Shown here one piece after another: positions 17,752 to 44,428 of a stretch of 64,000 nt of DNA. The translations under genes were made by a program, and so were the position numbers. The notes below the pieces were generated by a model. It was given only the letters and a program-made list of their open reading frames with translations, was not told the origin of the DNA and did not search any database. Position 1 is the first letter of the stretch; each line of letters starts with the position of its first letter. The stretch is from Alphaproteobacteria bacterium (GTDB lineage: Bacteria; Pseudomonadota; Alphaproteobacteria; UBA9219): contig JAYRGC010000070.1 in NCBI GenBank assembly GCA_041908065.1, forward strand, positions 33,180 through 97,179, given 5' to 3'.

Positions 17752-18480
17752 CTACAAACCGCAACCCATGCAACGCAGGCGGAACGGGATTGCTATGGAG
17801 TTGGTATTGTTATTGCGATTGCACCTTGTCATCGCGGTGGCGACCTGTACCGGAAACCGAACGGGCACACCATTTATTCCTATGGAGCTGGGCAACGCAG
17901 GATCCGGCCCATCGAATAAACCATAACCGGATGGAGAATTATCATCGGGATTAGCCGTAAGCCTAGTAGCCAACTCCACGCACGCGCCACGGGGAAGGCC
18001 GTCCAACATGATGCAGAAACTTTGTTTTCGCGCGGAGAAACTTTGTTTTCGCGCGGGATCTCGCATGTCAACCGGGTTAGCCGGGCAATTTCTACCCCCC
18101 CCCGGCCTATTATCATCAATCTGAAAATTACCCCCCCATGGATTTTGAAGCGTATAGGGTGGACCGGACGCCCTGTTGGAAACGAGTTCCAAGGGAATGG
18201 TGTGAGTTATCACAAGGGTATTGGTTAAATTAACTGCATTTCCATTGGCGTTATTTCCATTTAAATTGATGTCCCCTAGACTTCCATAATGTTTCCGTAT
18301 CTCATGCACCACCTGCTCGACCTGCGCCACGGCGCGTTCGACGCGGGCTTTTTCCATCTCCATATTGGTGATGCTCCAGATTCCGGCGATTATGAAAGAC
18401 GCGACCGCCAGCACGACCGCCATCTCGATCATGGTGTAGCCGGAGCGGCGGCTATCGCATCCTAAACGATATGCTGACAT
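17752..18480 (-). CDS. Type IVb minor pilin-like protein (prepilin-type N-terminus)
   Basis: Leader MSAYRLGCDSRRSG followed by YTMIEMAVVLAVASFIIAGIW, a class III signal. Last gene of the pil operon. Confidence 0.7.
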   Translation of the reverse strand: MSAYRLGCDSRRSGYTMIEMAVVLAVASFIIAGIWSITNMEMEKARVERAVAQVEQVVHEIRKHYGSLGDINLNGNNANGNAVNLTNTLVITHTIPLELVSNRASGPPYTLQNPWGGNFQIDDNRPGGGRNCPANPVDMRDPARKQSFSARKQSFCIMLDGLPRGACVELATRLTANPDDNSPSGYGLFDGPDPALPSSIGINGVPVRFPVQVATAMTRCNRNNNTNSIAIPFRLRCMGCGL

Positions 18481-19057
18481 TGTTGTTGTTCCCTGCGGCG
18501 TTACACCATGCGGATGCCGTGGTGGCACTTAGTGGCAGCGGGACCGCGCCGCCCGGATTGGCTATGTTGTTAAGATCGATTGTGACATTTCCTCCGGGGG
18601 CGGTCACCGTGAAAATTCCCGCCTCCTCCGACAGCACCGGAAGATATATCAAAAGATTAGCGCATTTCTGCTTGTCCAAGCCGTTGAAGTTGAAGCGGAC
18701 AAATGTTCTGACTTGGGGTTCGGTTCCAATCCTTATGCCGTCGACGGAAAAAGCCCCGCCCATCAAATGGGTGTAATTGCCGTTACTTACCCTCATCTCG
18801 ACCGGTATCATTCCTTGGGTAAAAAGCGCGTTGGTTATATTGTTTTGGGTAGCCGGGGGCTGATACGTTCTGTTCCGCATGTCCTGCACCATTTCCCACA
18901 TCTGCTGGTACACGCTGTAGGTCTGGTAATTTCGCCATGCCGCAGCGGCGGCCACCCATCCGGCGCTGATGACCAAAGTCGATATGCCCAAGGCTATCGC
19001 CGCTTCGGTTAGCGTGAACCCGCGTCTTCCGCTGCGTCTTTTGCCTATAACCATCAT
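18452..19057 (-). CDS. pilS: Type IVb major prepilin (R64 PilS-like)
   Basis: Leader MMVIGKRRSGRRG|FTLTEAAIALGISTLVISAGW. About 200 aa with long basic leader, typical of type IVb pilins. Confidence 0.8.
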   Translation of the reverse strand: MMVIGKRRSGRRGFTLTEAAIALGISTLVISAGWVAAAAAWRNYQTYSVYQQMWEMVQDMRNRTYQPPATQNNITNALFTQGMIPVEMRVSNGNYTHLMGGAFSVDGIRIGTEPQVRTFVRFNFNGLDKQKCANLLIYLPVLSEEAGIFTVTAPGGNVTIDLNNIANPGGAVPLPLSATTASAWCNAAGNNNNVSISFRMR

Positions 19058-19060
19058 GCG

Positions 19061-20170
19061 TCACATGCCCATTCCGCCGCCCATGCCACCGCCGCGAGAC
19101 ACTTCGGTAACGACGTCGAAAACCGAAAGCATCGTCCACGCGATGGTAGCGCCCACGACCATCAAACCGACGTTGCGAGCTACGACGGCCTGATCCTTAA
19201 GCTCGTCTATCTGGTCGCGAATCCATTCGTTGGCCACCTGTTCGATCACGCCGCCGACGTCGGCGCGTTCGGAGAGAATTTCCAAATCCACCGCCACGCC
19301 CGGATCGGGAAACCCGTAATCGCCCACCCGCAAGGCCTCGCCGAGATTGCGTCCGCGCAAAACCTCCTGCCGCGCCGAGTATATGCGCTCGCGCAGCCAC
19401 GGGGTAGCCTGTTCCTCTAAAATCTCAAGGGAACGCTTGAGAGGAACCTGCGCCCCCAGCAACGCCGAAAGCCCCAGCAGAAAGCTGCTGCCCTGCAGGA
19501 CGCGATACCACGACCACGGCGGAAAGCGATCCAGCTTGACCCTCAGCCTGCCGCGCCAAAGCGGCAGCGTCACGGTTATTAGAAACACTATTCCGATTAG
19601 CACGGCCACCACCACCAAGCCCCATTCGGCTAGAAAATCCGACACGGCGGCGACGTTGCCCATCTTGGCCATGACCTGCGGAGGGGCGGTTTTCTTCATG
19701 TTCTGGATCAGGTTGACGCCGAACATGTACAAGACGAAGCCGACCAGCACCACCATGAAGCCCGGGTAGGAAACCGCATAGGACACGGCGGCGCGCATTT
19801 CCCGCGTGCGTTCGCCCATAGCCTGTATCGAGGCGAAAGCCTTGGCCATGGTTCCGGATTCTTCTCCGGCGCGGATCATGTACAGCTCGGCCGGAGGGAC
19901 CCAGCCCTCCATCGATTCCGCCAAGCCTTTTCCGGCGCGATCCTTCAAAAACCACTCGCGGATCGCCAACGCGGCTATGCGGCGGGGATAACGTCCCATT
20001 TCCGAAGCGTTCTGATATAGGCGGTCGAGCGCGCTCGACAACGCTTCGTTCATCCGCAACATGCCTTCCAGCTTGCGGTATATCCTGTACCGGATCTTGC
20101 GGTTGTGCCTGAATTGGAGCTGGTTGAACGACCGCTCCAGATCGTCAAGGTTGAAACTTTCCAAACTCAT
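19061..20170 (-). CDS. pilR: Type IVb pilus inner-membrane platform protein (GspF/PilC family; R64 PilR-like)
   Basis: Polytopic membrane protein with GspF-like cytoplasmic domains. ATGA overlap with the upstream ATPase. Confidence 0.75.
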   Translation of the reverse strand: MSLESFNLDDLERSFNQLQFRHNRKIRYRIYRKLEGMLRMNEALSSALDRLYQNASEMGRYPRRIAALAIREWFLKDRAGKGLAESMEGWVPPAELYMIRAGEESGTMAKAFASIQAMGERTREMRAAVSYAVSYPGFMVVLVGFVLYMFGVNLIQNMKKTAPPQVMAKMGNVAAVSDFLAEWGLVVVAVLIGIVFLITVTLPLWRGRLRVKLDRFPPWSWYRVLQGSSFLLGLSALLGAQVPLKRSLEILEEQATPWLRERIYSARQEVLRGRNLGEALRVGDYGFPDPGVAVDLEILSERADVGGVIEQVANEWIRDQIDELKDQAVVARNVGLMVVGATIAWTMLSVFDVVTEVSRGGGMGGGMGM

Positions 20171-22245
20171 GCCATCGCCCCTAACCGCTGCTCGACTTCC
20201 ATGACTTCTTTAATGCGCGCCAACGGCCCCACTTCGAACTCGGCGTCTTGCGGAGACACTTCCCCGCGCCGTATCTTCTCCAGCGCGTGCCACCCCATGG
20301 TAACGCCGTTCATCTCGTGTGGCGATAGCCAATAATTGCTGGCGTCCTCAAAATGGTTTTCCTGCAGCATTTCCATTAACTTTTGGTCGGTCTCTATCAC
20401 TTCGGCGCACACCGTGCGTCCGGAACGGCCTTTGTAGCAATGCTGGCAACCCTCGGTATTGGCCACATAAACGTTCCGCATATCCGGTTCAGACAACCGG
20501 TCGTAAAGCGACGACTTGCCGCCACCCGCCTTGCTGCGCGAGGCGTCCATGATAGCCAATCCGGCGCGGGTACGACGAGCCAATTCCTTGTAAGTCGGCC
20601 CCATGTCCGATACAGCCGTCGACAGCGATATGCGACAATTAGGGCAAACCCCGCGCAGCAGCCTTTGACAGATCATGCCGCGCAGAAGATGGTGGTCGTA
20701 AACCAGATAAGGCTCGATGCCTATGTCGCGCAAACGCTGAGGAATGGCCAAAGCCGAATAAACGTGGGTGGTCGTGTAAACCTGTCGTCCCGTCAGGGCC
20801 AAGCGAAAGGCGAATTTGGCGGTTTGAATGTCGCGCACCTCGCCCAGCATGACGATGTCGGGATCGAGGCGCAGGGCGCAGCGCATGATTTCCAAAAATG
20901 ATTTTTCGCGCTGCTCGTCCTTGACCGAGGCCGAAACGCCCACTTGCCTCGCGCCGACCACGCCGCCTTCTGGAGGATCCTCGACCATAAGACAGTTCAG
21001 CTGCATGTTGGTTTCGGCCATGCGCCGGTTCAAAGTGACGCGCAAGGTCGTGGTCTTGCCTTGGTTGACGGGACCAGCGAACACGCGCATGCCGCCGGGC
21101 AGGGCGCGCAGGCTTTGGATGACGCGAAGCTGCTCTTGCGAAAAGCCCAGCGAATCCACGTCGGTCATTATGAAGTTTTCGCCGAACAGATGCGATGAAT
21201 CGTATTGAAGCCGCATGTCCAGATAACGACCGCCGTCCGCCAATGGAACCCATTGGCAGCGAACGCTTATGACCCCGTTGGGAAGAGACAGGGAATCCCG
21301 CCCCTTGCTGGCGGCGGAAAGCATCGCCGCTTGAGGTTCCTGCCAGTTGGCCGTGGCCCCGGACTGCCCCACCGAATGGGAGTAGATAGAGGAAAGCATT
21401 TCTTCGCCTTCCTTTTGCGTCCACGTCTCCCACAGACGCATCGCTCCGTCGATGCGGAACTCTATTCTGGTGCGGCCCTCGCTGGCCTCGATGTGAATAT
21501 CGTTGGCTCCCACCTGAACCGCGCGTTCAAGGGTTTCGGTTATCCTTCTTCTGACCGAGTTTTCATCCAGCCGCGCCGTAACCTGCTTGCGGTTAGCGTA
21601 CATGTACGCTTGCCGGATAATGTTAGGCGTGACGTAACGAGGGGGATCGAGACGATGCCCCTGCCTCTGCGCGGCTTGGGCGACCGAAGTCACCAGCGGC
21701 GAGTTGCGGTGCGACGCGCTGACCAGCCACATGCCGTTGTCGAACAGGGCGCAAAGATTGCGGGATTCCTCGGGTATCTTCAACGCCCCGCCTTCGGCTG
21801 TCAGCAGTTCGCCGGAAAATGACATCCCGCCCGCTAAGGCTAGGCTTCTTTCGTCCTCCACCTTTAATTCGTTAGTGCCGGAAATCTTGGCTTGGGGTGA
21901 ATTGCTGCTCCCCTCGCCGCCGCTTTTACCCGAACCGGAGGAAGCCTCGGGCTTCTCTGCGCCTTCGTTCGAGTCGGCTGAGCGTTCTTGCCCGCTTTTA
22001 TCCGCCGCCGCAGCCACTGTGGTCGCCGCCACAAGGCTGGTCGGTTTGGCATGTTGCTTTTGATAGGCGTCTCGCACCTGCTTGGCATTGGCAGCGGAAG
22101 TCTCCGCCGCTTGTTTGCGCTCTTCCTCGGTTTTAGGTTTGCGAGGCGGCGGCAGCGGGGCTTCGGGAGGAATAGATCCCCCTCCTCGCAAAGCCGCGTT
22201 CAGCTTTTCGCCTATGTCGGATATTATGCTCAAGGCGGCACCCAA
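20167..22245 (-). CDS. pilQ: Type IVb pilus assembly ATPase (GspE/PilB family; R64 PilQ-like) with long low-complexity N-terminal extension
   Basis: Walker A GPVNQGKTTTL, Walker B MLGEVRD, His box TTHV. Tetracysteine CPNC...CQHC. The first ~150 aa are Ala/Ser/Glu/Lys-rich. Confidence 0.85.
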   Translation of the reverse strand: MGAALSIISDIGEKLNAALRGGGSIPPEAPLPPPRKPKTEEERKQAAETSAANAKQVRDAYQKQHAKPTSLVAATTVAAAADKSGQERSADSNEGAEKPEASSGSGKSGGEGSSNSPQAKISGTNELKVEDERSLALAGGMSFSGELLTAEGGALKIPEESRNLCALFDNGMWLVSASHRNSPLVTSVAQAAQRQGHRLDPPRYVTPNIIRQAYMYANRKQVTARLDENSVRRRITETLERAVQVGANDIHIEASEGRTRIEFRIDGAMRLWETWTQKEGEEMLSSIYSHSVGQSGATANWQEPQAAMLSAASKGRDSLSLPNGVISVRCQWVPLADGGRYLDMRLQYDSSHLFGENFIMTDVDSLGFSQEQLRVIQSLRALPGGMRVFAGPVNQGKTTTLRVTLNRRMAETNMQLNCLMVEDPPEGGVVGARQVGVSASVKDEQREKSFLEIMRCALRLDPDIVMLGEVRDIQTAKFAFRLALTGRQVYTTTHVYSALAIPQRLRDIGIEPYLVYDHHLLRGMICQRLLRGVCPNCRISLSTAVSDMGPTYKELARRTRAGLAIMDASRSKAGGGKSSLYDRLSEPDMRNVYVANTEGCQHCYKGRSGRTVCAEVIETDQKLMEMLQENHFEDASNYWLSPHEMNGVTMGWHALEKIRRGEVSPQDAEFEVGPLARIKEVMEVEQRLGAMA

Positions 22246-22365
22246 GAAATCAATACAACCACGACCAGCATATCATCCCCTAGCGGGATAAGCGCAATGC
22301 CGTCCTGCATCTTCCGATTAAAAACACACTAATTGGTTAACATTCTCGATGGCCACAAAAAAATT

Positions 22366-22623
22366 GGCTCTTTCTGAAAACCGGTGGGCAAGAAATCTCT
22401 GGCTCTTACGCAAAACTGGTGGGAAAAAGAGCCGTGCGAGGTTACAGCCAAAGGCTGTCTGCGAGCCGCCACCCTTTGGTTTGGACAGCGTTAACGCTGT
22501 CGGGCGGCGAAGCAATCCAGGCCTTATGGAGCAACGGCACTGGATTGCTTCGCGTCGCAAGGGCGACGCTCGCAATGACGTCGCTTGCTATGCAAAATTA
22601 TCCACCCGTTTTGGGCAAGAGCC
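22366..22623. repeat. MITE-like element copy D, located inside the pil operon (pilP-pilQ intergenic)
   Basis: Duplicated left TIR (ggctctttctgaaaaccggtgggc / ggctcttacgcaaaactggtggg). Hairpin and cgctcgcaatgacg modules. Right TIR tccacccgttttgggcaagagcc. Confidence 0.85.
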
Positions 22624-22661
22624 AGAAATCCAGACAGAGTCCGTGTCTATTCCTTTGGTGA

Positions 22662-23477
22662 TTATTTGGAGGAACCGAACACAGTGTTGACGTCCTTGAC
22701 GCGAATCACTCTTTCGTCACGGGAGGACGAAGAACAGCTGCTCTTGGATTTTTTGCCCTTCTTGGACTTTTTACCATCGGAAGATTCGGAACAGTTGGAT
22801 AAAGAACTGTCGCCGCCCTTCGATTTGGCCAAAGTTATTCCATAGCTGTTCACGGAAACCACCGTGCTGCCATCGGAAATTTTGTCTCCTTCGCGAACGC
22901 TGACATGCTTTTCGCTGTCGCCAACGCGAATGATGGCGCGGTAATTGCCTCGGGCTCCCACGACGCGCTCGACCACCACGTCTTCCTGCGGCTTTTCAAT
23001 CGGCGGAGGCGGAGGCTGCATCGCCGCCGGAGGCATCATACCCATCTGCGGCGGGGCAAGCGCGCTGGCCGGTATGGCGGGTATGGTTTTTTCTTCTCGT
23101 TCGCGGCGGATCTGATCCAACTCGCTGATCCGCTTTTCCAGATCGATAAGAAGATCCATCTTGGCGACAGCCTCGCGAGCGCGGTTCATGTCCTCGACAT
23201 TAACTTTGTCGGAAGAAGTTCCAAGCTGCTTAACCAGCCCGCTAACCGATTCAGGAACCTTGGGATCGCCTTCTTTTTTATCCAAAGCGGACGAAGATAT
23301 GCCAATTCCCGAAGCGGCATCGACCGTTGGTTGAACCTCGGGCGACTGCGGCATCACCGGAAAATCCTGTGGAACCGCGGCGGCGTCTTGCGCTGATACC
23401 GGAAGCGAGCCAAAAGCAGCGGCTCCCAAAGCCGCGAAAGCTACGGCGGCGGCGAAATTTCTAGCGACGGTTTTCAT
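22662..23477 (-). CDS. pilP: Type IVb pilus periplasmic protein (R64 PilP-like), signal peptide plus coiled-coil plus Pro-rich
   Basis: Signal peptide ...GSLPVSAQ. Positioned between the pilO and pilQ homologues. Confidence 0.55.
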   Translation of the reverse strand: MKTVARNFAAAVAFAALGAAAFGSLPVSAQDAAAVPQDFPVMPQSPEVQPTVDAASGIGISSSALDKKEGDPKVPESVSGLVKQLGTSSDKVNVEDMNRAREAVAKMDLLIDLEKRISELDQIRREREEKTIPAIPASALAPPQMGMMPPAAMQPPPPPIEKPQEDVVVERVVGARGNYRAIIRVGDSEKHVSVREGDKISDGSTVVSVNSYGITLAKSKGGDSSLSNCSESSDGKKSKKGKKSKSSCSSSSRDERVIRVKDVNTVFGSSK

Positions 23478-24717
23478 AAATTACCCCCTCGATGTTCCAT
23501 CCACCCCCAGGATTTAATGTCAGAGAGTTTAACACGACCCCGGGCAAATCGGCAAAGAAAGTGGACAATGTCCATGGTAAAACAGGGGCGTTCATGGTGA
23601 ACGACATCCTTATCCACGGCACTGGCGGCGGATTCCACGGACCGTTATATCCGGGCGGTGGCGGCGGCGGCGGATCGTCAGGAACGCGATTCAACGTGGC
23701 CGGCCAGTTTTCGAGCAAGTACTTGCGGGTAACGTCGACCGGATCGGCAAGTTCCTCGTGGCCGCGATCGGAAATTGTCGGAAGCACGAAACTTTGGGTG
23801 GCATCTGTTCCCAGATCAGATATGACGAAGTCGGGCGGCGGCGAAGAAAATCCGCCAGCGCGATCCCATTTTGTCGTGGCCGACGCGCCTACGCATTTAA
23901 CCTCGGACAACCGCCATCCAGCTACCGCCAACGGTATTTTATTTAAAATCTTATTGCAGGCGGAAACGAACTCCAGCGGGGCGGGGCGTTTCTCCCATGT
24001 GCGCTCGGGGACGGGATATGGCGGGGGTTGACCGGCTATGCCTTGTCCGGCCTGACGCGCCAATTCTTGGGCGCGTTGCAAAGCCTCCATCGCCTGAAGT
24101 CTTTCCGCTTCTTCGCGTGCCTTTTTCTCCTGAATATACCAGCCGATAGACAAGGCCAGCAAAAGCCCTAATCCGCCCACAAGCAGAACCAGCTTCATCT
24201 CCTTGGACAAAGCCACTTGCCGCAGCCTAACGTCAGCGCGGTCGTTGAGCAACAGGCTTACCGGAAGGGTGTCAGCCCCGGGCACTCCCCACGCCTCGGG
24301 CGCGTAGACGCGTTGTAGTCCGCCCAAAGCCATTTCCTGCAAGAGGCGATCGCGAGCTTCGGTTTCATCCTGGAAAAACTGGTCGCCGTCGGGAACAATG
24401 AGATCGTCGCGAACCACCACCACCGCCACGCCCTCGCGGAGACGGAAAGCCCCCGCCCACGAGCCTGGCTGCTGGTTGGCGATGCAGGCCGCCAAAGCGG
24501 GCATTCCGCTTTTGTGTTCGCGTTGCGAGTGGCTGAGGCCGAATTGTGGGACCCGCCCGCTGCGATCGCCGCTGCGAACGGCATAGTAGTAGGCCTGCTG
24601 CCCGGGCTGTCTGGCCGCGTCCTTAGCCGCTTGCGCGACGCGCCCGCTGGGACTGTTTTCCCAGTACAAGCCGGAGGCGTACTGCCTTCGTCCTATGGTG
24701 ACGATGCCTGAAGCCAT
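23461..24717 (-). CDS. pilO: Type IVb pilus biogenesis protein (R64 PilO-like)
   Basis: 418 aa with a central TM segment LVLLVGGLGLLLALSIGWYI. Synteny downstream of the secretin. Confidence 0.55.
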   Translation of the reverse strand: MASGIVTIGRRQYASGLYWENSPSGRVAQAAKDAARQPGQQAYYYAVRSGDRSGRVPQFGLSHSQREHKSGMPALAACIANQQPGSWAGAFRLREGVAVVVVRDDLIVPDGDQFFQDETEARDRLLQEMALGGLQRVYAPEAWGVPGADTLPVSLLLNDRADVRLRQVALSKEMKLVLLVGGLGLLLALSIGWYIQEKKAREEAERLQAMEALQRAQELARQAGQGIAGQPPPYPVPERTWEKRPAPLEFVSACNKILNKIPLAVAGWRLSEVKCVGASATTKWDRAGGFSSPPPDFVISDLGTDATQSFVLPTISDRGHEELADPVDVTRKYLLENWPATLNRVPDDPPPPPPPGYNGPWNPPPVPWIRMSFTMNAPVLPWTLSTFFADLPGVVLNSLTLNPGGGWNIEGVIYENRR

Positions 24718-26306
24718 CAGTCACGCTCCGCGCGAGGAACTTCCAAAACCTGCGGCGTTATCGCCATAAACATCATGGAGTGGGTGAACGAGTCGTCATA
24801 TCCACCACCCAACATGAAGTTGAAAGGACTGCCGACCCCCCGCGTATCCTGCGTATCCATCCTGTCGTCGTAACCGCCGATGAAAAGCGTCGAACCGCTT
24901 TTCAGCAACGCTTGCTGCACGAACACGCGGCTCGCTGTCTCAGGCAATTCCAACTCCGTCCCTTGAATGATAACCGGCTTGAAACCTAGCAGATCCGTCA
25001 GACTGAGCGAGTATTGAAGGACTATGCGTCCGTCATCCAATAAACGCGGCGTCAACTGGAGGGAAAAGCCGTCACGCACCACGCCAGTAGTGACAGAAAC
25101 GCTGGAGGAAGAACTTATCGAACCAGTAGTATTCGTCAACGACGACACATAGGCGGTATCTTTGCCAATACGACGGGAAACCGGACGATTGTTCAACGTC
25201 GTCATCGGGAATTGCGCCATACGACTGGTGTTGCCCAAGGTAGACAGGGCTGAGAACACGCCGTTGCGATTCTCGCTGGGGTTCAAGATGGCGATCGAAA
25301 GTTTTCCCGCCCCCGCGGTTGCCGCCGCCGCTGTGGTAGGGCTAGCGTACCTCGCGCCGAAATCCGACAACTTAGCCAAGGCGGTTTCAAACGCGAAGTC
25401 GAAGGTGACTTCATTACCCAAATCGACGCGGTAGATTTCCACGTTTATGGCTATCTGCTTGGACAACCGCTTGTTTTCTTCCTCGATGAACTGCGCCACC
25501 ACCCGCATCAATTCGGGCGTGGTGGTAACGGTGATGGTTCCGCTGGAGGGGGCCACCACGGCGTTGCCGACGCCACCCAACATGGAGGTGATGGTCTGAC
25601 CCAATTCGTCCCAAACCTTGATTTCAACGTTCATTTCCGCCGATTGCTGCAACGCGCTGGTGCTGCCGCCGCCGGAAGAACCGCCGCCGCCGGAGCCGCT
25701 CATCGATCCGCCGGAAGAACCAGAGCTTTCGTCTTCCTTCATACCGTCTTTGACACTTTGGGTGCCGGGCAGAGCCTCAATCGAGAACACGCGGGTTTCG
25801 TATCTGATGATAGATACCGACGTGCCGTCGTAACGCCAACTGACGCCGAAATACCCCGACACCAGATCCAACAATCCCGACAAAGATCCCTCATAAGCAA
25901 CCGGCATCCCCGCCTTGGGCGCGTCAGCGACCGCAGCCGTGTCGGCACCACCCGCCACCCTTATGGGCAATCCGGTTTGGCCGCCTATCGCCGAAGCTAT
26001 TTCCTTAAGCGACATTGGATCGCCAGATACCAAGGCGACGCCGCGAGAAGTTTCGTATTTAGCAGGCAAGGGCAAACCGCGACGGAGACGCATCGAAGCG
26101 TTGCCAGCCCACACGCGATCAGTCACCACCAGCGGATTGTACGCCTTAGGAGGAGCCGGAACGCGGGATTCCTCGACCCCGCTCGCCACCCGCTGGGCGT
26201 TTTGATTTATCTTGTTATTCGTCTTGTCGACCGTACATCCCGCCAGCGCGACCGCCGAAGAGAGAACAAGAACCATCCGCTTGGAAACCATGGTCATCCC
26301 CATCAT
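24717..26306 (-). CDS. pilN: Type IVb pilus outer-membrane secretin lipoprotein (R64 PilN family)
   Basis: Lipobox LAGC. C-terminal secretin motif LFIGGYDD...FMAITPQVL. Confidence 0.8.
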   Translation of the reverse strand: MMGMTMVSKRMVLVLSSAVALAGCTVDKTNNKINQNAQRVASGVEESRVPAPPKAYNPLVVTDRVWAGNASMRLRRGLPLPAKYETSRGVALVSGDPMSLKEIASAIGGQTGLPIRVAGGADTAAVADAPKAGMPVAYEGSLSGLLDLVSGYFGVSWRYDGTSVSIIRYETRVFSIEALPGTQSVKDGMKEDESSGSSGGSMSGSGGGGSSGGGSTSALQQSAEMNVEIKVWDELGQTITSMLGGVGNAVVAPSSGTITVTTTPELMRVVAQFIEEENKRLSKQIAINVEIYRVDLGNEVTFDFAFETALAKLSDFGARYASPTTAAAATAGAGKLSIAILNPSENRNGVFSALSTLGNTSRMAQFPMTTLNNRPVSRRIGKDTAYVSSLTNTTGSISSSSSVSVTTGVVRDGFSLQLTPRLLDDGRIVLQYSLSLTDLLGFKPVIIQGTELELPETASRVFVQQALLKSGSTLFIGGYDDRMDTQDTRGVGSPFNFMLGGGYDDSFTHSMMFMAITPQVLEVPRAERD

Positions 26307-27331
26307 TAGTCGCTGTAATTGTTGCCACGAACCTCAACCACCAGAACCGTCTGTCCTGCCGTCGGGCTGTTATGCAAACGGGCAATCGGTTGGGGCTGAG
26401 CGTCTTGGAATCCTAATAATAAACCGCGCACAGCCTCCTCAAAAGTTCCGGTAGACGCCACCGAAGCCTGTATCGGATAGTCGTACTCGGCTTGCCAGCT
26501 TACTTCCACGCCGGCCTTCCTAGCCCACCCATCCAACACCGAACGAAGCGTCTCCCCGCGATTGGCTGTCCATGTGTCCAACACCGTCGGAGCCGCGCCC
26601 ACGTGTCGCGTTCCCGCAAAACCGCCGTTGGCAGCCACTGTGGGTATGGACACCGGAGCCTGATCAAAAGAGTCGTCGCCACCCAAAGTTCCCAACGAAG
26701 ACGGCCTGTCCAAAACCGTGTTCGACGGCGATTGCAGCAGCGAAGCCGGACGATCGGCGATCACGGAAGATCCTGACGCGCCCGATCTGGAAATTATGAC
26801 CAACCCTTCGCGTTCGCGCATAGACAGGCCAGCGGGCTGGATCATGTCTTTTATGGTTTGACGCCAAGACTTGCCGCCGCGCCAAGAAACCATGACATCG
26901 GATCCCACATCAGGATCCACGGAGAAGCCGTGATCGGGCGGCAACACTTGTCGCATCGCCACAGCAAGCGGCACGCTGTCGGCGAAACCGCGCACAGCTC
27001 CGTCGCCATCGCTCGAACGGCCGGAAGAAGAAACCAAAGGCTCGGGATCGCCGCCTACCACTACCGGAGCGATGGCGCGAGGAGAGGGGGAAACCACATA
27101 GTTCTGAACCTGAACAGGGGATCTCGGCGCGGGCGACGGCGAATAAGCATTGCCCACCGCCACCTGAGGAGCGGCCTGACGCGACGGAGCTACCGATTCG
27201 GCAGGGGCAACCCACTGAAATCCGGCGATCGCGTTGTTTGGAAAAACCGCCGCTATCGCCGAGGCGGCTATCGACGCCAACAAAAGGCGGCGCAAAGCCG
27301 ACGGCGAGGAAGTCAAAGTGCGATCTTGCAT
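26306..27331 (-). CDS. Pilus-associated periplasmic protein with TcpQ/PilL-like C-terminal domain
   Basis: Signal peptide plus Ser/Pro-rich linker. C-terminus W..GETLRSVLDGWARKAGVEVSWQAEYDYPI resembles the TcpQ C-terminal domain. ATG at 27331. Confidence 0.5.
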   Translation of the reverse strand: MQDRTLTSSPSALRRLLLASIAASAIAAVFPNNAIAGFQWVAPAESVAPSRQAAPQVAVGNAYSPSPAPRSPVQVQNYVVSPSPRAIAPVVVGGDPEPLVSSSGRSSDGDGAVRGFADSVPLAVAMRQVLPPDHGFSVDPDVGSDVMVSWRGGKSWRQTIKDMIQPAGLSMREREGLVIISRSGASGSSVIADRPASLLQSPSNTVLDRPSSLGTLGGDDSFDQAPVSIPTVAANGGFAGTRHVGAAPTVLDTWTANRGETLRSVLDGWARKAGVEVSWQAEYDYPIQASVASTGTFEEAVRGLLLGFQDAQPQPIARLHNSPTAGQTVLVVEVRGNNYSD

Positions 27332-27613
27332 TTCCCTATGCCCTTTACAAATCAACAAGCCGATTCCATAAAACGGCACCGCATTTGAATCAGGCGGCAA
27401 TTTCCGTATGGATTGGGGGTTAGCCTAGACGAGCCCACATCAGATTACAACCGTAGTATTTAAACAAAAACGCGATTTGACCACCCATTGTGCCACGGTT
27501 GCCACAAGCTCAGAATGCGGCGCGAACCAAACAAGGCGCACGCTATCGCCCCAAAGTATAATTTTTGGTAAATGATTTAGGATCGCGGATTGTTTTTAGG
27601 GAGACCCTGGCGG

Positions 27614-37221: not shown

Positions 37222-37415
37222 CGGCGTTTGCGAAGTTACAGCCAAAGGCTGTCTTTGTAGGGTTACGGCCAAAGGCCGTCATGCGACGCGAAGCAATCCA
37301 TTGCCACAGGCGCAACGGCTCTGGATTGCTTCGCGGCCTGAAGAAGGCCGCTCGCAATGACAGCGCTTATTGCTGCCATTCTCTTATAAATTACTCTCCA
37401 GTTTTGCGCATAGAG
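37222..37415. repeat. MITE-like element copy F (tandem 27-bp units, hairpin, degenerate TIR)
   Basis: Contains gcgaagttacagccaaaggctgtc x2, gcgaagcaatcca...ctggattgcttcgcgg, and cgctcgcaatgacagcg. Confidence 0.75.
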
Positions 37416-37565
37416 GCAACCAATTTTATGTTCTTGCCGCCTCCGCCATAACCATGCCATTATTTGGCGTTATCCTCGCTGCTTGGGTGGCCTTTTCATT
37501 GAACGAAGAGGCACCGTAAGCGGTTCGTCCGTGCAACCAGTCGTTCATCAAGGATGGAGATCCAT

Positions 37566-37940
37566 ATGCGCCGCAATCTGCTCCTCGCCGCCACAGTCTT
37601 GGCCACTCTGCTGTCCGTTCCCGCCCATGCCGAGGAAGGGTGGTCGTTCGGAAATTCGTCGTGCGGAAATCCGGTTCCATGTAGTTCCATTAAAAGTGGG
37701 CAGCTTTCAAACTCTGATATTATATCCATATCAAATTCATGTATTGCCAACAATCTGGGGCATCGTGGTGGAAACGCCTTTGAAGACCGCGGGTTGGATT
37801 CTAACCTTTGTTTGACATCAAAAAAATCCACTAAAGCTGCTGATGGTGGCATGGTGTTAATGCCTAAGTGCTGCGTTGTTCCTGTCGCCAACAATAAGGA
37901 AATGTGCCAGATTATTTGTAAGCTTATAGGAACCCGCTGA
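37566..37940 (+). CDS. Small secreted cysteine-rich protein (10 Cys), low-GC
   Basis: Signal peptide MRRNLLLAATVLATLLSVPAHA. The gene is visibly AT-rich compared with its neighbours. Confidence 0.5.
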   Translation: MRRNLLLAATVLATLLSVPAHAEEGWSFGNSSCGNPVPCSSIKSGQLSNSDIISISNSCIANNLGHRGGNAFEDRGLDSNLCLTSKKSTKAADGGMVLMPKCCVVPVANNKEMCQIICKLIGTR

Positions 37941-37956
37941 TCTAACCGCCCAACCA

Positions 37957-38439
37957 GTGGCAGGAAAACTCCCCAAAGACATATCCGCCATCGTGGACGG
38001 GGTGGCATCGCGTGTGGTCGGCAACGACTGGGCGTTGTATGCCGCCCTGTTCCGGCGGTGGCGGGAGATAATCGGCGAGGAATATGCGGACGCCACCTCC
38101 CCCGTAAAACTTTCCGCGATGCCGCGCGGAACGCTTGCGTCCGGCGAGGCCGGATGCCGTCCCCCCAAAAGGCTGCATATCGCCTTGCCGCGCGGTTTGG
38201 TAACAGACATTACGTTTGCCAAGCCGCGCATTCTGGAACGCATCGCCGATTGCATCGGGCGGGAAGTCATAGCCGATCTTGTGTTGGAACCCAGACATAC
38301 AACAAAATCCAAGGCGTTTCGCGGACGCGCCGCGCCCACAGCACCTCCGGTCGAATGGCGGGAACGGATTGACCGTGAAATAGAAAACCCCGACCTGCGC
38401 GCCGCGCTGGAAAGCCTCGGCGCGTGGATGAAGGGATAA
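37957..38439 (+). CDS. DUF721/DciA-family protein
   Basis: About 160 aa with the typical alphaproteobacterial DUF721 layout. Motifs WREIIGEEYADATSPVKL and LHIALPRGLVTDITF. Confidence 0.6.
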   Translation: MAGKLPKDISAIVDGVASRVVGNDWALYAALFRRWREIIGEEYADATSPVKLSAMPRGTLASGEAGCRPPKRLHIALPRGLVTDITFAKPRILERIADCIGREVIADLVLEPRHTTKSKAFRGRAAPTAPPVEWRERIDREIENPDLRAALESLGAWMKG

Positions 38440-38444
38440 TCAGC

Positions 38445-38645
38445 AGAGCCCTTCGAAGGGAACTTACGCGGCCAACGCGCCGCAATCCCTCCTCTCCCTC
38501 TGGGAGAGGATAAGTTTGCCCGAATTTTCGCCTCCGAAAATTCGCGGCAATACCTTGGTGAGGGTTCTTTTTCAAACCCAGCTTGGGAACCCTCACCAAG
38601 CTGCGGCTAAGGATTTTCGCTAAGGGGCGAAAATCCGAGCCGCGC
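38445..38645. repeat. Composite palindromic repeat, inverted copy (reverse complement of the A+B units of the 39.06-39.70 kb array)
   Basis: cccttcgaagggaacttacgcg ... cctctccctctgggagagg ... cccgaattttcgcctccgaaaattcgcgg ... cttggtgagggttc...gaaccctcaccaag. Confidence 0.8.
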
Positions 38646-38699
38646 TATCCTCTCCCAGAGGGAGAGGAATCCCCGCCGCGCCGGTTGTTTTCAATTTTA

Positions 38700-39058
38700 T
38701 AGGGAATGATTTTGGCCTCTCGAAGGATTGTTTCGATTACGCCGTTTATATCCGCCGTCACATCAGAATTAGTGAAACGGATGGTGCGATAGCCGAGTTT
38801 GGCAAGGTATTCATCGCGGTGAAAGTCTTGTCGTTGCCGCAGATCGTGTGAGATGCCATCAAGCTCGATTATCAACTTGGCTTGTAAACAAGCAAAATCC
38901 GCCGTGTATGGAGGGATTGGATGTTGGCGGCGAAACTTCAATCCAACGGACTGATATAGTCCTCGCAACCGTTGCCAAAGCAAGGATTCCGTGCGCGGCA
39001 TTTCGGATCGTAGTTTCCGTGCTTTCTTTATATGCGGTGGATGAGGTATCGTGCGCAT
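38700..39058 (-). CDS. DUF559 (Vsr-like) endonuclease domain protein
   Basis: ESLLWQRLRG ... FRRQHPIPPYTADFACLQAKLIIELDGISH ... IRFTNSDV matches the DUF559 pattern. The ORF tail (to 38645) runs into the repeat. Confidence 0.65.
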
Positions 39059-39059
39059 A

Positions 39060-39700
39060 GCGATATTGTATTGCCCTCACCAAGGTATTGCCACGAATTT
39101 TCGAAGGCGAAAATTCGGGCAAACCTATCCTCTCCCAGAGGGAGAGGGGGGATTGCGGCACGTTGCTCGCGTAAGTTCCCTTCGACAGGCTCAGGGAACG
39201 CGGAATTTCGGTTTTATGAACAACAGGTGCAGCGGCGGCACCTCTCCCTCTGGAAGAGGATAGCGCGGCTTGGATTTTCGCTCCTTAGCGAAAATCCTTA
39301 GCCGCCGCTTGGTGAGGGTTCCCAAGTTGGGTTTATAAAAGAACCCTCACCAAGGTATTGCCGCGAATTTTCGAAGGCGAAAATTCGGGCAAACCTATCC
39401 TCTCCCAAAGGGAGAGGGGGGATTGCGGCACGTTGCTCGCGTAAGTTCCCTTCGACAGGCTCAGGGAACACGAAATTTCGGATTTATGGATAGAAGATGC
39501 GGCGGGGATTCCTCTCCCTCTGGGAGAGGATAGCGCGGCTTGGATTTTCGCCCTTTAGCGAAAATCCTTAGCCGCAGCTTGGTGAGGGTTCACAAATTGG
39601 GTTTACGCAAGAAACCCTCACCAAGGTATTGCCACGAATTTTCGAAGGCGAAAATTCGGGCAAACCTATCCTCTCCCAGAGGGAGAGGACGCACCAACTG
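39060..39700. repeat. Tandem array (about 2.5 units, period ~270 bp) of a composite palindromic repeat
   Basis: Unit A (ccctcaccaaggtattgcc.cgaattttcgaaggcgaaaattcgggcaaacctatcctctcccagagggagagg...) at about 39062, 39335 and 39615. Unit B (ctctccctctgg.agaggatagcgcggcttggattttcgc...cttggtgagggttc...gaaccctcaccaagg) between them. Confidence 0.85.
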
Positions 39701-39744
39701 CGCCTTTGGGATAGACCTCTGACTTTCGCGCATCCGCGCAAAAG

Positions 39745-39785
39745 AAAACCGCCCGCCCCTGTTGTCAGGGACGGGCGGGGTATTA
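39745..39785 (-). terminator. Rho-independent terminator downstream of the pilin-fibre fusion gene
   Basis: ccgcccgtccctgacaacaggggcgggcgg hairpin followed by TTTT on the minus strand. Confidence 0.6.
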
Positions 39786-39802
39786 AACCCTAGAGATTTG
39801 GA

Positions 39803-41356
39803 TTAGTGCGAACCGTTGCCGATCCGGCCTTCCAGTCTTTCGATCGCCTCGGACTGTTCGCGCACTGTGCGGGACAGTTCGTCGTTGCGGGTCTTCAGCT
39901 CGTTGACAGCCCCCACCAGCGGCCCGATCAGGCCGATGTAGTTGACTGCCATGTAACCGTCAGCACCGCTCTTGACGAGTTCCGGATAGACCTTCTTCAA
40001 GTCCTGGGCGATGAGGCCGAGCTGCTTGTCGCTTGGCTTGTCGCCGTTCAGAACATAGGAAATCGGAACCAACTTACCCATCCGATCCAAGACGCCCTCC
40101 AGCGGCTTTACGCTGTGTTTGACGCGAAGATCCGATGTCCCGTACTGGTATAGAGTGCCCGCGTAGACACGCATGGCTACAAGCGAACCAGTTATACGCT
40201 GGCTCCCAAACACTTGCAAAGCTTCCACGCATTGGGGAGTAGTAGCTTCAGCTATCGCATCAATAATACAGGCATTACCACCAGCACCGTCCACTACAAG
40301 TGGTTTGAAATCGTCACTTCCCGGGACATTAGAGAGGACGACGTTCGCCGAGGGGTTCTTAAACCGCCCACGCAGCATATTCACCATCGTACCAGCTGGG
40401 GTAGGATTTCCCGCGGCATCATAGGTTGCACCATCGATGGCACCACCCTCTAGGCGTAGAGTATTTCCGACCATATGGAGGTTATAGGTATTGGCCGGAT
40501 CAGCAGGAACGGTGACAGCAGTAGCTGCGTCGCTTTTGAAAAACACACTGCGCTGCAATGTGAAGAAGTCAGGAGTATTAGACGTCCCCACCGTGCCAGC
40601 ATTGGTCGTGGTGGCATCGGCTACCCTAGCCAACCACGGGTTGGAGCTGATGGTCGTGATCCTGCCGACATAGGACATTGAGGCAACGCGGCCAACTGAA
40701 GCCTGACCACCAAGTCCATAATTTGCAACCGGAGCAGTCCACGCGCCGTAAGCACCGCAGGCGTTGTTAGGCGTAGCTCCACAGGTAGCGACGTTGTACA
40801 TGAAGCCGCCTTCGGCACCGATAAGGGCGGAAATGGATCCACCCTCGCTATCGGAAATCGGCTGTCCACCAGTCGTCATGACCATGTAAGAATAGCTGCC
40901 GTTCGCCTCTTTTCTGACTCCGATGGCAAATCCTTGGTCATATGCGTTGACCGTATTGGAATTTATGGTGTCCGGCAGATACGGACACAAGGCATCGATG
41001 CCAACTGGCCCGAACGTAGGGGGAATGTTGGTGTTGCCACCGCAAGGGGTGCCAGCCGCCCGTGGCGGGGGCAATTGAAGTGTTATCACTGTATTGGCAG
41101 GAACGGCAGTGCTAGCAACAAACCCCTGAGCCTGACCGTCGGTTCCCATATATATTTCCACCGCCGCCATTATCTGGCGATGCAAATCGGCCGAAGCCTG
41201 ACCTTGCAACTGCTGGCCGCCTCCGGAGACGAGTTTCCACAACCCGCCGAACAAAAGCGCGGAAATCGACAGGACGATCGCCAATTCCACCAGCGTGAAA
41301 CCGCGAGCATCTTGGCGTCCGCGGAGAATATTCGTTATAGCTTTGGAACCCATCAT
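39803..41356 (-). CDS. Pilin-like protein with C-terminal phage tail-fibre intramolecular chaperone (peptidase S74) domain
   Basis: N-terminus: leader then RG|FTLVELAIVLSISALLFGGLW, a prepilin peptidase motif. Middle: Gly/Thr/Ala/Asn-rich. C-terminus: SDLRVKHSVKPLEGVLDRMGKLVPISYVLNGDK...LGLIAQDLKKVYPELV...AVNYIGLIGPLVGAVNELK plus coiled-coil. GGGAGG RBS 7 nt before the ATG at 41356. Confidence 0.7.
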   Translation of the reverse strand: MMGSKAITNILRGRQDARGFTLVELAIVLSISALLFGGLWKLVSGGGQQLQGQASADLHRQIMAAVEIYMGTDGQAQGFVASTAVPANTVITLQLPPPRAAGTPCGGNTNIPPTFGPVGIDALCPYLPDTINSNTVNAYDQGFAIGVRKEANGSYSYMVMTTGGQPISDSEGGSISALIGAEGGFMYNVATCGATPNNACGAYGAWTAPVANYGLGGQASVGRVASMSYVGRITTISSNPWLARVADATTTNAGTVGTSNTPDFFTLQRSVFFKSDAATAVTVPADPANTYNLHMVGNTLRLEGGAIDGATYDAAGNPTPAGTMVNMLRGRFKNPSANVVLSNVPGSDDFKPLVVDGAGGNACIIDAIAEATTPQCVEALQVFGSQRITGSLVAMRVYAGTLYQYGTSDLRVKHSVKPLEGVLDRMGKLVPISYVLNGDKPSDKQLGLIAQDLKKVYPELVKSGADGYMAVNYIGLIGPLVGAVNELKTRNDELSRTVREQSEAIERLEGRIGNGSH

Positions 41357-41444
41357 GTTTAGCCTCCCTTGGTTTAAAACGACTTTTCTCCACTTTCCCG
41401 AACGCTTCAACACGTTCTCGGCGTCACGGCACCATTATAACACC

Positions 41445-42044
41445 TTATTTTAACACTACAACCGCCCCGTTCGTAATACCAGTGCCACTAGCCGTGCCAA
41501 AATTGAACGTCCTCTGGGTAGGAACCCACCCATTTCCTGATACGGCTCTCCCCACGTTAGTCCTTATTACTGTGCTTGTCGGCCCCATAGATATTATCCT
41601 GCCGTATGTGCCGGGCAGCATCGGTGGATTCATGTTGTTAAACTGCTTATCCAATTCCGCTACCGTGAGTCCCACGCCAGCTATCGGTTGATTGTTGTTG
41701 GCAACATTGAATGCCGTTATGGTTATAATTGTTCCTGCCACATTGCACTTAACTGTATTGATGGTGTTAACCAGCGAAAATGCCGTGCCATAAACCGCCC
41801 CTCCATCATTCAACATCGAATACATGGAATTGGGAAGACTCGCCGCCGCCGCCGTAACCCTATTACAAGTTCCTGCACCGGCGGGGTTACCGGTTGTGTC
41901 AGCAGCAATCACTTTGTTGTAGGCGTCAATAGAACTCGCCGTCAAATCCTGTCTCTCCGACATTTTGGCGGATTGCTGGAAATACGCATTGGTGTAAACA
42001 CCAATCGCGGCCAAAAGCAATATTACAAATGTAAATATATACAT
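41445..42044 (-). CDS. Hypothetical membrane-anchored Thr/Asn/Gly-rich protein (low-GC, co-oriented with the pilin-fibre gene)
   Basis: N-terminal TM MYIFTFVILLLAAIGVY. About 85 bp upstream of the pilin-fibre gene on the same strand. Confidence 0.5.
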   Translation of the reverse strand: MYIFTFVILLLAAIGVYTNAYFQQSAKMSERQDLTASSIDAYNKVIAADTTGNPAGAGTCNRVTAAAASLPNSMYSMLNDGGAVYGTAFSLVNTINTVKCNVAGTIITITAFNVANNNQPIAGVGLTVAELDKQFNNMNPPMLPGTYGRIISMGPTSTVIRTNVGRAVSGNGWVPTQRTFNFGTASGTGITNGAVVVLK

Positions 42045-42307: not shown

Positions 42308-42673
42308 ATGGCCGAGGAAACCAGCGTAATAGACCGGATCAAGGCCGACATCGGCCGCAACGACGTGGTGCTTTACATGATGGGCACGCCGGTGTTCCCC
42401 AAATGCGGGTTTTCCTCCCAAGCCGCGCAAATCCTAGGGTTGATGGGGGTTGAGTTCAAGGCCGTCGACGTCACCGCCGACCCGGGCGTGCGGCAGGTCA
42501 TCAAGGATTTCAGCAACTGGCCGACGTTTCCCCAGCTGTACGTCAAGGGCGAGATGATCGGCGGCTGCGACATCATGCGCGAAATGTACCAAAGCGGCGA
42601 ATTGCAGCAGCTTTTCGACGAAAAAGGGGTCAAATACGGGGCCACGCCTCCAGCCCAAGCCGCCGGAGGATAA
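42308..42673 (+). CDS. grxD: Grx4-family monothiol glutaredoxin
   Basis: Monothiol site CGFS. Motif WPTFPQLYVKGE.IGGCDI. Confidence 0.9.
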   Translation: MAEETSVIDRIKADIGRNDVVLYMMGTPVFPKCGFSSQAAQILGLMGVEFKAVDVTADPGVRQVIKDFSNWPTFPQLYVKGEMIGGCDIMREMYQSGELQQLFDEKGVKYGATPPAQAAGG

Positions 42674-42677
42674 CCCC

Positions 42678-43697
42678 ATGAAACAATACAAAATAGCCAT
42701 CGTCGGAGCCACCGGAGCCGTCGGGCACGAGACCATGAAAACGCTGGCCGAACGCCAGTTTCCGGCCTCCGAGGTAGTGGCTTTGGCGTCGGCGCGCTCG
42801 GTGGGCGGCGAGGTCAGCTATGGCGAGGATAGGGTTCTTAAGGTGCAAGACCTCGCCAAGTACGACTTTCGCGGCACGGATATATGTTTTTCTTCCGCCG
42901 GAGCCAATGTTTCGGCGGAGTTCGCCCCCCGCGCCACCGAGGCCGGATGCGTCATCATCGATAAAACCTCGCAATTCCGCATGGACGCGGACGTGCCGTT
43001 GATCGTGCCGGAGGTCAATCCCAAGGCTTTGGCCGGATATACCAAACGCAACATCGTCGCCAATCCCAACTGCGCCACCATCCAGCTGGTCGTGGCGTTG
43101 AAGCCGCTGCACGATCTGGCGAAGATAAAGCGCGTGGTGGTTTCCACCTATCAATCCGTCTCGGGAGCAGGCAAGGAGGCGATGGACGAGCTGTTCAGCC
43201 AGACCCGCGCCGTGTTCGTCAACGACGAGCTGAAGCGCGAGCAGTTCCACAAGCAAATCGCCTTCAACCTGATCCCGCAAATCGACAAGTTCATGGACGA
43301 CGGCTCGACCAAGGAGGAATGGAAGACCGTGGTCGAAACGCAAAAGATTTTGGATCCGTCCATCCAAGTCGCCGCCACCTGCGTCCGCGTTCCGGTGTTC
43401 ATCGGCCATTCCGAGGCGGTGACGATAGAGTTCGAAGATCCGATCACCGCCAACGAAGCGCGAATGGCGTTAAAGCGCGCCAAGGGCGTCGCTTTGGTAG
43501 ACCGCCAGACCGATGATGGGTTCGTCACTCCGGTCGAATGCGTGGGCGAGGATCAGGTGTTCGTCAGCCGCGTCCGCGAGGACAAGTCGGTCAAGAACGG
43601 CATCAGCTTGTGGGTGGTGAGCGATAATCTCCGCAAGGGCGCGGCCTTGAACGGCGTGCAGATAGCCGAGTTGCTGATAAAGGAATACCTGAAATGA
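42678..43697 (+). CDS. asd: Aspartate-semialdehyde dehydrogenase
   Basis: N-terminus MKQYKIAIVGATGAVG. Conserved along its length. Confidence 0.9.
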   Translation: MKQYKIAIVGATGAVGHETMKTLAERQFPASEVVALASARSVGGEVSYGEDRVLKVQDLAKYDFRGTDICFSSAGANVSAEFAPRATEAGCVIIDKTSQFRMDADVPLIVPEVNPKALAGYTKRNIVANPNCATIQLVVALKPLHDLAKIKRVVVSTYQSVSGAGKEAMDELFSQTRAVFVNDELKREQFHKQIAFNLIPQIDKFMDDGSTKEEWKTVVETQKILDPSIQVAATCVRVPVFIGHSEAVTIEFEDPITANEARMALKRAKGVALVDRQTDDGFVTPVECVGEDQVFVSRVREDKSVKNGISLWVVSDNLRKGAALNGVQIAELLIKEYLK

Positions 43698-44428
43698 AAA
43701 TAGCCGTCGCCGGCATGGCCGGACGCATGGGATGCGCCATAGCGCGCATAGTCGCGAACGAAACCGAAGGAGCCTCGCTGGCGGGCGGGATCGTGCGGGC
43801 GGAGGAGCTGGCCAAGACCAAGGCCGCTTTCCCTTCCGTCGCGGTGTCGGACAACGCCGACGAGGTGCTGCCCTTATGCGACGCGCTGATCGATTTTTCC
43901 GCCGCGACGGCGACGCCCATGTACGCGGCGGCGGCGGTTCGCCACGGCAAGGCCTTTGTCTCCGGCGTGACAGGGCTTGACGCCGCGACGATGGAGGCGT
44001 TGCGCGAGGCCGGACGCAAAATCCCCGTTCTATATTCCGCCAACATGAGCCTGTCTTTGGCGGTGATGCGGCGGCTGGTCGAACAGGCGGCGCGGATGCT
44101 GAAGGATTGCGACTATGACGTTGCAATCCTCGACATCCATCATCGCATGAAAAAGGATTCCCCGTCCGGCACGGCGAAAACGTTGGCGGCTGCGGTCGTG
44201 GCCGGAAACAGCGGGGCCAAGCAACCCGCATTCGCCGACATCCGCGCCGGATACGTCGTGGGCGAGCACGAAGTTATGTTCGCGGGGCAGGGCGAGGTCG
44301 TTTCGCTCCGCCACAGCGTGACGGATCGCGACATATTCGCTCGCGGCGCGGTTCGCGCCGCGTTATGGCTGGGCGGCAGGCCGGCAGGGTTTTATGGAAT
44401 CGACGAAACGATGGAAATTTCTAAATAA
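43694..44428 (+). CDS. dapB: 4-hydroxy-tetrahydrodipicolinate reductase
   Basis: N-terminus MKIAVAGMAGRMG. ATGA overlap with asd. Confidence 0.85.
   Translation: MKIAVAGMAGRMGCAIARIVANETEGASLAGGIVRAEELAKTKAAFPSVAVSDNADEVLPLCDALIDFSAATATPMYAAAAVRHGKAFVSGVTGLDAATMEALREAGRKIPVLYSANMSLSLAVMRRLVEQAARMLKDCDYDVAILDIHHRMKKDSPSGTAKTLAAAVVAGNSGAKQPAFADIRAGYVVGEHEVMFAGQGEVVSLRHSVTDRDIFARGAVRAALWLGGRPAGFYGIDETMEISK

Follow-up and report, generated by a model that had tools for sequence, protein, structure and literature searches.

A 64,000-nt stretch of DNA from an alphaproteobacterium (GTDB lineage UBA9219; GenBank assembly GCA_041908065.1, contig JAYRGC010000070.1, positions 33,180 to 97,179), here called the window, contains a minus-strand gene encoding a protein that begins as a type IV prepilin and ends in a Peptidase_S74 domain, an ICA (intramolecular chaperone/autocleavage) domain of the kind found in phage tail fibres. 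An earlier note, made from the sequence alone, had singled out this gene as a chimera of the two. The open reading frame (ORF) spans positions 39803-41413, and the frame for 517 amino acids (aa) opens at an ATG at 41356, a start that the strong Shine-Dalgarno sequence AAGGGAGG supports over the GTG at 41413. Together with a partner gene immediately upstream, the pilin gene forms a separate unit (39749-42044) with AT-rich DNA upstream of it and a terminator of its own (Table 1), and the pair lies 12.4 kb (27400 to 39803) from a type IVb pilus operon, as the earlier note had it.

The N-terminus of the protein has the features of a class III signal: a basic leader ending in Gly(-1), a hydrophobic helix and Glu24 at position +5, with the prepilin peptidase site between RGRQDARG and FTLVELAIVLSISALLFGGLW. 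It scored over the curated cut-offs of both PF07963 (N_methyl; E 9e-6, 25.5 bits against a cut-off of 21.2, residues 17-39) and NCBIfam TIGR02532 (IV_pilin_GFxxxE; 20.5 bits against 16.3). The residues that follow, up to a conserved PWLAR motif that closes the globular domain, have the pilin fold, in which a long N-terminal helix lies on an antiparallel beta-sheet. BLASTP aligned the window protein with the PilV proteins of Bosea pBSY19_1 (29% identity over 232 aa, E 2e-17) and Burkholderia pINT23 (26% identity over 253 aa, E 6e-11), and since both of these exceed the threshold of the Pfam family Shufflon_N (PF04917), the pilin module can be assigned to a divergent PilV type. When the N-terminal 258 residues of one homologue (P0010) were used in tblastn, they matched 146 plasmid records, and all 15 among the matches listed were named [quoted passage not shown]; Shufflon_N itself was found in 2 of the 19 homologues described below (E 3e-8). 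The protein also contains six cysteines in pairs, 105/124 and 192/200 in the pilin module and 363/376 in the region beyond it, which fits an exported, disulfide-bonded protein. Judged by its sequence, the segment of residues 20-245 is a complete, divergent PilV-type type IVb minor-pilin domain.

At the other end of the protein, residues 408-462 matched the full model (positions 1-58) of PF13884 (Peptidase_S74) at E 8e-12 and 45.7 bits, against a cut-off of 22, and residues 408-517 have the ICA fold with its C-terminal coiled-coil helix. Foldseek matched this part to the ICA domain of MyRF (7dc3; E 7e-6) and to the endosialidase chaperone 3gw6, and profile searches matched it to the tail-fibre structures 8jov and 6f45 (E about 1e-13). 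Its relatives are abundant in phages: 247 viral models matched at E <= 0.001, tblastn recovered tail-fibre genes in 778 phage records, and the whole protein matched 25 PHROGs families, nearly all of them tail-fibre C-termini. In both PHROGs and tblastn, the similarity to phages is restricted to this domain. Sequence and structure together confirm residues 408-517 as an S74/ICA domain. Domains of this type trimerise, chaperone the fold that precedes them and cleave themselves by means of a Ser-Lys dyad, only once the trimer has folded; the role of the dyad has been described for endosialidase and for MYRF (PMC3742443). The window protein has an intact dyad, Ser408 and Lys413.

Between the two domains lies a region (residues 246-407) whose length and sequence differ greatly from one family member to another. 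It opens with a Thr/Gly/Asn-rich linker after the PWLAR motif and ends with a conserved pre-cleavage strand (ALQVxG...YxY), and we presume it to comprise a trimeric stalk and the receptor-binding part. The earlier note had read the middle ~330 aa as a fibre shaft within a tail-fibre-like body. This needs correcting: residues 20-245 are the pilin module, only residues 246-407 are variable, and these residues alone matched nothing in PHROGs or Pfam. An alignment with PHROG_1980 over residues 242-510 had suggested tail-fibre homology of the middle; the alignment is carried by the S74 part, and we no longer count such homology as established.

To determine whether the fusion is maintained, we turned to its relatives. 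A word-indexed search gave 19 full-length homologues with 29-39% identity, and an exhaustive profile search of 1.84 billion representatives gave 889 proteins at E <= 1e-30; among the best 150 of these 889 matches, most align end to end. N_methyl and Peptidase_S74 are both present in 19/19 of the first-round homologues and are also common to about 147 full-length representatives, indicating that the fusion did not arise by chance. In the alignment of the 19 homologues Gly19(-1), Glu24(+5), Ser408, Asp409 and Lys413 are invariant. For the wider set, conservation was counted in the 147 retrieved relatives of at least 400 aa, 143 of which were aligned at the signal positions: at position -1, 139 have Gly and 4 have Ala, Glu(+5) is present in 143/143, and Gly(-1), Phe(+1) and Glu(+5) each occur in at least 139 of the 143; in the dyad region, Ser and Asp are each retained in 146/147 and Lys in 147/147. 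Failures of the strict motifs are variants such as SDRNLK or A/FTLIE (the slash marks the cleavage site), not losses. Both processing sites are thus nearly invariant and under selection, and the conserved Gly(-1) and Glu(+5), together with the scores of the signal models, favour a class III signal over an ordinary Sec signal-anchor. All homologues come from metagenome-assembled genomes of Alphaproteobacteria or Rhodospirillaceae, and as far as seen the family is confined to uncultured alphaproteobacteria; databases already list homologues under such names as “tail fiber domain-containing protein” and [quoted passage not shown] Together, these data identify the window protein as a PilV-type type IVb minor pilin that ends in an S74 intramolecular chaperone, an identification to which we assign a probability of about 0.9.

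Table 1. Features of the pilin-partner unit and of the type IVb pilus operon in the window. A slash marks a prepilin cleavage site.
Feature	Positions	Strand	Details and basis
Gene for PilV-type minor prepilin with C-terminal S74 domain	39803..41356	-	517 aa; stop codon 39803-39805; ORF call, Pfam/NCBIfam, family alignment
Shine-Dalgarno sequence AAGGGAGG	41363..41370	-	Strong; 6 nt before ATG 41356; sequence read
Leader peptide, residues 1-19 (MMGSKAITNILRGRQDARG)	41300..41356	-	Gly(-1) at its end; N_methyl and TIGR02532 over cut-offs
Mature pilin module, residues 20-245	40622..41299	-	alpha1-N helix FTLVELAIVLSISALLFGGLW and PilV-type globular domain
Variable region, residues 246-407	40136..40621	-	Highly variable length and sequence in family alignment
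Codons S408-D-L-R-V-K413	40118..40135	-	Predicted autocleavage site and Ser-Lys dyad; invariant in 19-homologue alignment
Peptidase_S74 (ICA) domain, residues 408-517	39806..40135	-	Coiled-coil helix 474-514 at C-terminus
Intrinsic-terminator-like hairpin	39749..39778	-	13 bp, 11 GC pairs, T-run; 25 nt past pilin stop codon
Partner gene	41445..42044	-	199 aa; no Pfam family; opens directly with hydrophobic helix MYIFTFVILLLAAIGVYTNAY
Type IVb pilus operon, PilN/PilO type	17752..27400	-	Pfam, prepilin N-termini, orthology to operons of L003, L019, L010
TcpQ-domain protein	26306-27400	-	Pfam
Secretin with Secretin_N_2	24717-26306	-	Pfam
PilO	23461-24717	-	Pfam
Candidate PilP-like ORF	22662-23477	-	
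T2SSE ATPase	20167-22245	-	692 aa; Pfam
T2SSF platform protein	19061-20170	-	Pfam
Two prepilins (G/FTLTE, G/YTMIE)	18452-19057, 17752-18528	-	N-termini

The type IVb pilus operon of the window encodes no pilV-type gene between positions 17752 and 27400. Orthologous operons are present at three comparison loci (L003, L019 and L010), with ATPases 71-79% identical to that of the window, T2SSF proteins 62-73% identical, and PilO and secretin at about 50% and about 48% identity, respectively. At L003 and L019, the partner gene and then the S74 pilin gene close the operon, which is ordered secretin, PilO, T2SSE, T2SSF and pilins, and canonical pilV genes of plasmids occupy the same terminal operon position, as at L022 and L023. 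The position of the S74 pilin where pilV is expected in orthologous operons, the lack of a pilV in the window operon and the homology to PilV all support the reading of the protein as a type IVb tip pilin. In the window the pair is detached, so its functional coupling to the operon at 17752-27400 rests on orthology. Directly upstream of the operon's first gene lie genes for a MerR-family regulator and an HU/IHF-type DNA-binding protein (27614-28425, minus strand), which are candidate pilus regulators.

A related partner gene is found immediately upstream of the S74 pilin gene in 8/8 loci with upstream DNA (for example L001:9261-10004, L003:8512-9207 and L019:9359-9976), and also upstream of the canonical Bosea pilV (L023:11319-11918 is a further instance of the partner). 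The encoded proteins are about 200-300 aa long with the N-terminus MY(L/I)(L/F)xF..., and the helix of the window partner is pilin-like from residue 1 (MYLLVFV...G.Y.Q), without a leader peptide and without Glu at +5. A single-sequence search with the window partner matched only itself and a profile search yielded six sequences; the AlphaFold2 model built on this six-sequence alignment has a predicted local distance difference test (pLDDT) score of 45.6, and its topology of a helix followed by strands is suggestive and unusable. One possibility is that the partner is a tip or adaptor component that resembles a pilin without a leader. The description of the two genes as a low-GC module (GC, guanine plus cytosine content) applies to the partner gene (0.478) and not to the pilin gene (0.557, against a window mean of 0.573); among 2.2-kb windows the module ranks at the 8th percentile, which is due to the partner gene alone, and we rejected a “low-GC island” as a strong signal.

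The remaining neighbours of the pilin gene (DciA, a DUF559 endonuclease, HisD and HisG) are housekeeping and not phage genes, and ORFs at 42308-44428 are, as we take them to be by eye from their translations, those of glutaredoxin, Asd and DapB. Two further features of the window lie close to the genes under study. A dense, intergenic array of palindromic repeats (38446-39690) directly follows the terminator of the pilin gene; it comprises about 2.3 tandem copies of a 270-nt unit (39074-39690, 91% identity) and an inverted 244-nt copy (38446-38689), its inverted arms flank the DUF559 endonuclease ORF (38645-39058, minus strand), and all 11 copies of its core palindrome TCCTCTCCCAGAGGGAGAGG in the window lie within it, where chance would give 0.01. 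The array has the look of a REP/MITE-type element (repetitive extragenic palindrome/miniature inverted-repeat transposable element). Between the pilus operon and the pilin pair are a gene for a DDE_3 transposase (30705-31415, minus strand) and a DUF4034 gene (29917-30684, plus strand), which occupy the window's lowest-GC kilobase (0.427, 30001-31000), and this kilobase may mark a rearrangement that split the operon from the pair.

The best reading of these data is that the protein forms a trimer and that the machine of a type IV pilus displays it. CofB-type minor pilins, which trimerise through their C-terminal domains, initiate pilus assembly and reside at the pilus tip (PMC6048534), provide the model for the mechanism that we propose, a homotrimeric pilus-tip adhesin and assembly initiator whose formation is driven by the S74 domain, and to which we give a probability of about 0.6. 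The pilin would belong to the pilus whose machinery is encoded at 17752-27400. Its prepilin would insert into the inner membrane via the alpha1-N helix, and a prepilin peptidase would remove the 19-residue leader after Gly19. In the periplasm, three S74 domains would associate through their coiled coil and chaperone residues 246-407 into a homotrimeric stalk or knob, and once the trimer had folded, the Ser408-Lys413 dyad would cut before Ser408 and release the 110-residue chaperone. The mature trimer (three chains of residues 20-407) would then retain its three pilin modules, with their alpha1-N helices in the membrane, and it would seed pilus polymerisation and end at the tip, as CofB and TcpB do, with the newly exposed distal C-terminal end binding a surface receptor. 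By analogy with PilV adhesins, the ligand would most plausibly be a polysaccharide or the lipopolysaccharide of another cell (PMC5297154, PMC9045228). We infer trimerisation, periplasmic autocleavage, tip location and ligand from the domains and from their known relatives.

Several observations weigh against this interpretation. The window protein falls under the Pfam threshold for Shufflon_N (16.3 against 27.5 bits, E 0.007), and it has no shufflon: a single uninterrupted ORF runs through to the S74 part, the palindromic units beyond the gene (38446-39690) are intergenic and do not represent alternative C-terminal exons, and no recombinase was seen among the scanned neighbours. Shufflons are also absent from many PilV homologues outside IncI plasmids, so the lack of one does not exclude membership of the wider PilV family. 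No prepilin peptidase was found either, in a six-frame scan of all window ORFs that was limited to the GxGDxK motif, and none of the called genes of the L003 and L019 operons has an A24 Pfam match; the enzyme may be encoded elsewhere in the genome. The pair is detached from the pilus operon not only in the window, but also at 5 of the 7 other loci (L001, L002, L007, L020 and L021). The part to which we ascribe the stalk and receptor binding is modelled at pLDDT < 50 in the monomer, besides its lack of matches noted above. Lastly, the S74 chaperones studied so far fold in the cytoplasm or cytosol, and function in the periplasm is assumed here.

An alternative is that the S74 domain is not removed and remains on the pilin as a displayed protease or a permanent distal knob. 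A peptidase function has in fact been proposed for pilins of this architecture (PMC8179133), S74 is a peptidase family in MEROPS, and cleavage itself is only predicted here. The characterised S74/ICA domains, however, act on their own chain only, after trimerisation, and the serine begins the released fragment (PMC3742443); moreover, the self-cleavage motif S-D-x-x-x-K is kept at the domain boundary across the family, and no substrate-binding module is present. We consider this alternative unlikely. Somewhat less likely still is a role outside the pilus encoded at 17-27 kb, as a pseudopilin, or as a minor pseudopilin that presents cargo, in a system resembling type II secretion or in another type IV filament. 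The separate transcription unit, with its AT-rich upstream region and own terminator, the detachment of the pair from the operon at most loci and a second secretin/T2SSE cluster 7 kb away at L001 would all accommodate such a role, and the protein has a weak match to GspH; this match scores 13 bits, far under the cut-off of 80, and we rejected a GspH-type pseudopilin on that basis. The homology of the pilin module to PilV and the presence of the pair inside orthologous type IVb operons at L003 and L019 argue for the type IVb pilus instead, and the scanned window ORFs yielded no further machinery for type IV filaments.

The many PHROG tail-fibre matches and the 778 phage records matched by tblastn, with a transposase about 9 kb off and a repeat array adjoining the gene, could also be taken to indicate a prophage tail-fibre remnant whose N-terminus is a Sec signal-anchor, or a non-functional chimera. 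All of the phage similarity maps to the S74 domain, however, the neighbours are housekeeping genes with no phage structural genes among them, and the conservation of Gly(-1), Phe(+1) and Glu(+5) is not required of a generic signal-anchor, while the pilin fold and the homology to PilV are established. We rejected a prophage origin on genomic context and regard this explanation as very improbable. Together, our results favour a PilV-type tip pilin that would be assembled with the help of its own S74 domain.

This assignment bears on an unsettled point, since both the restriction of PilV-type minor pilins to the tip and their oligomeric state are unsettled (PMC9045228). S74 is known to work only in homotrimers and to cleave only after these have folded correctly, so its strict conservation on a PilV-type pilin provides independent, sequence-level evidence of a trimeric function. 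We tentatively suggest, as a bolder proposal that we hold to be somewhat improbable as a whole, that in a clade of environmental alphaproteobacteria the tip of the type IVb pilus carries a phage-style homotrimeric receptor-binding fibre and that the S74 autocleavage checkpoint, passed only by a properly assembled trimer, doubles as the licensing step of pilus initiation. If so, receptor-binding modules and their chaperones would have been exchanged between phage tail fibres and pilus tip adhesins, and PilV-type adhesins in general would act as trimers. The fusion itself is an instance of a phage intramolecular chaperone reused in an exported bacterial adhesin, and the cleavage state of S74, cleaved or uncleaved, would offer a built-in biochemical read-out of tip-complex assembly; the practical impact is limited.

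Other loci show S74 proteins or S74 pilins in different surroundings. At L020 (1-9163) and L021 (12121-21488), the partner and S74-pilin pair adjoins Dot/Icm-like genes for type IVB secretion (TrbI/DotG, DotM_C and a TraG-D_C coupling protein), a layout that recalls the IncI plasmids, in which transfer by a type IVB system goes together with a thin pilus tipped by PilV; no Dot/Icm-like genes were found among the scanned ORFs of the window. L001 (1-6405) encodes, some 4 kb upstream of its S74 pilin, a very large protein (at least 4021 aa) that matches the YadA head faintly, and after it two more Peptidase_S74 proteins, each about 380 aa long and without a pilin N-terminus. This suggests that S74 chaperones are used more widely in non-phage surface fibres of these organisms.

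The earlier note knew of no described example, but the architecture is on record. In a survey of modular pilins in InterPro, Raynaud et al. 2021 tabulated IPR012902-IPR030392 as the sixth most frequent architecture, with 29 proteins and a representative from a Clostridiales bacterium, together with pilin-YadA-head-S74 variants (4 and 3 proteins), and read the S74 module as “peptidase activity” (PMC8179133). Considered with the alphaproteobacterial family described here, the Clostridiales entry places the N_methyl-S74 pair in at least two distant lineages, and the YadA-head variants, which carry another trimeric adhesin module in the same position, support the trimer reading. In the freely accessible literature that we searched, there was no functional study of an N_methyl-S74 pilin, no published link of S74 pilins to PilV or type IVb pili and no reading of their S74 domain as a chaperone that trimerises and is then removed. 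Our interpretation would correct the view of this architecture as a peptidase pilin.

Among the closest known systems is PilV, which serves as minor pilin and tip adhesin in the conjugative type IVb thin pili of IncI plasmids (R64, TP114) and PAPI-1-type islands. Like the window protein, PilV has a class III signal and a homologous N-terminal constant pilin domain, and its variable C-terminal part presumably sets binding specificity; like the S74 pilin of L003 and L019, it is encoded by the last gene after those for TcpQ, secretin, PilO, ATPase, platform protein and major pilin. The window protein differs in lacking a shufflon (there are no invertible 3' segments, and no recombinase was noted among the called neighbours), in ending in an S74 domain, which is absent from the two canonical PilV proteins checked, and in its chromosomal locus, where the gene is detached from the operon. 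[quoted passage not shown]

With phage fibres (K1F endosialidase, the T5 pb1 L-shaped fibre, phi29 gp12 and T4-like gp37 variants) and MYRF, the window protein has in common the S74/ICA domain, the Ser-Lys dyad and the coiled coil. The polarity proposed for the pilin also resembles that of phage fibres, in which the N-terminus is held on a carrier and cleavage unmasks the distal C-terminus. Its carrier, however, is a pilin helix and not a virion attachment domain, its folding would be periplasmic, no phage genes are nearby, and the segment before its S74 domain has no detectable similarity to fibre shafts. Modular pilins such as PilB and PilC of Streptococcus sanguinis offer the other comparison: as in the window protein, a pilin serves to display a functional module joined to it. 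The IPR012902-IPR030392 entry, by comparison, is a database count with a representative from another lineage and a second module read as a peptidase, whereas the pilin part of the window protein is of PilV type and we take its S74 domain for an assembly device that is removed after use rather than for the module with the function. The architecture is thus already catalogued, and the protein is a variant within the trimeric type IVb tip pilins and the modular pilins, not a categorically new system.

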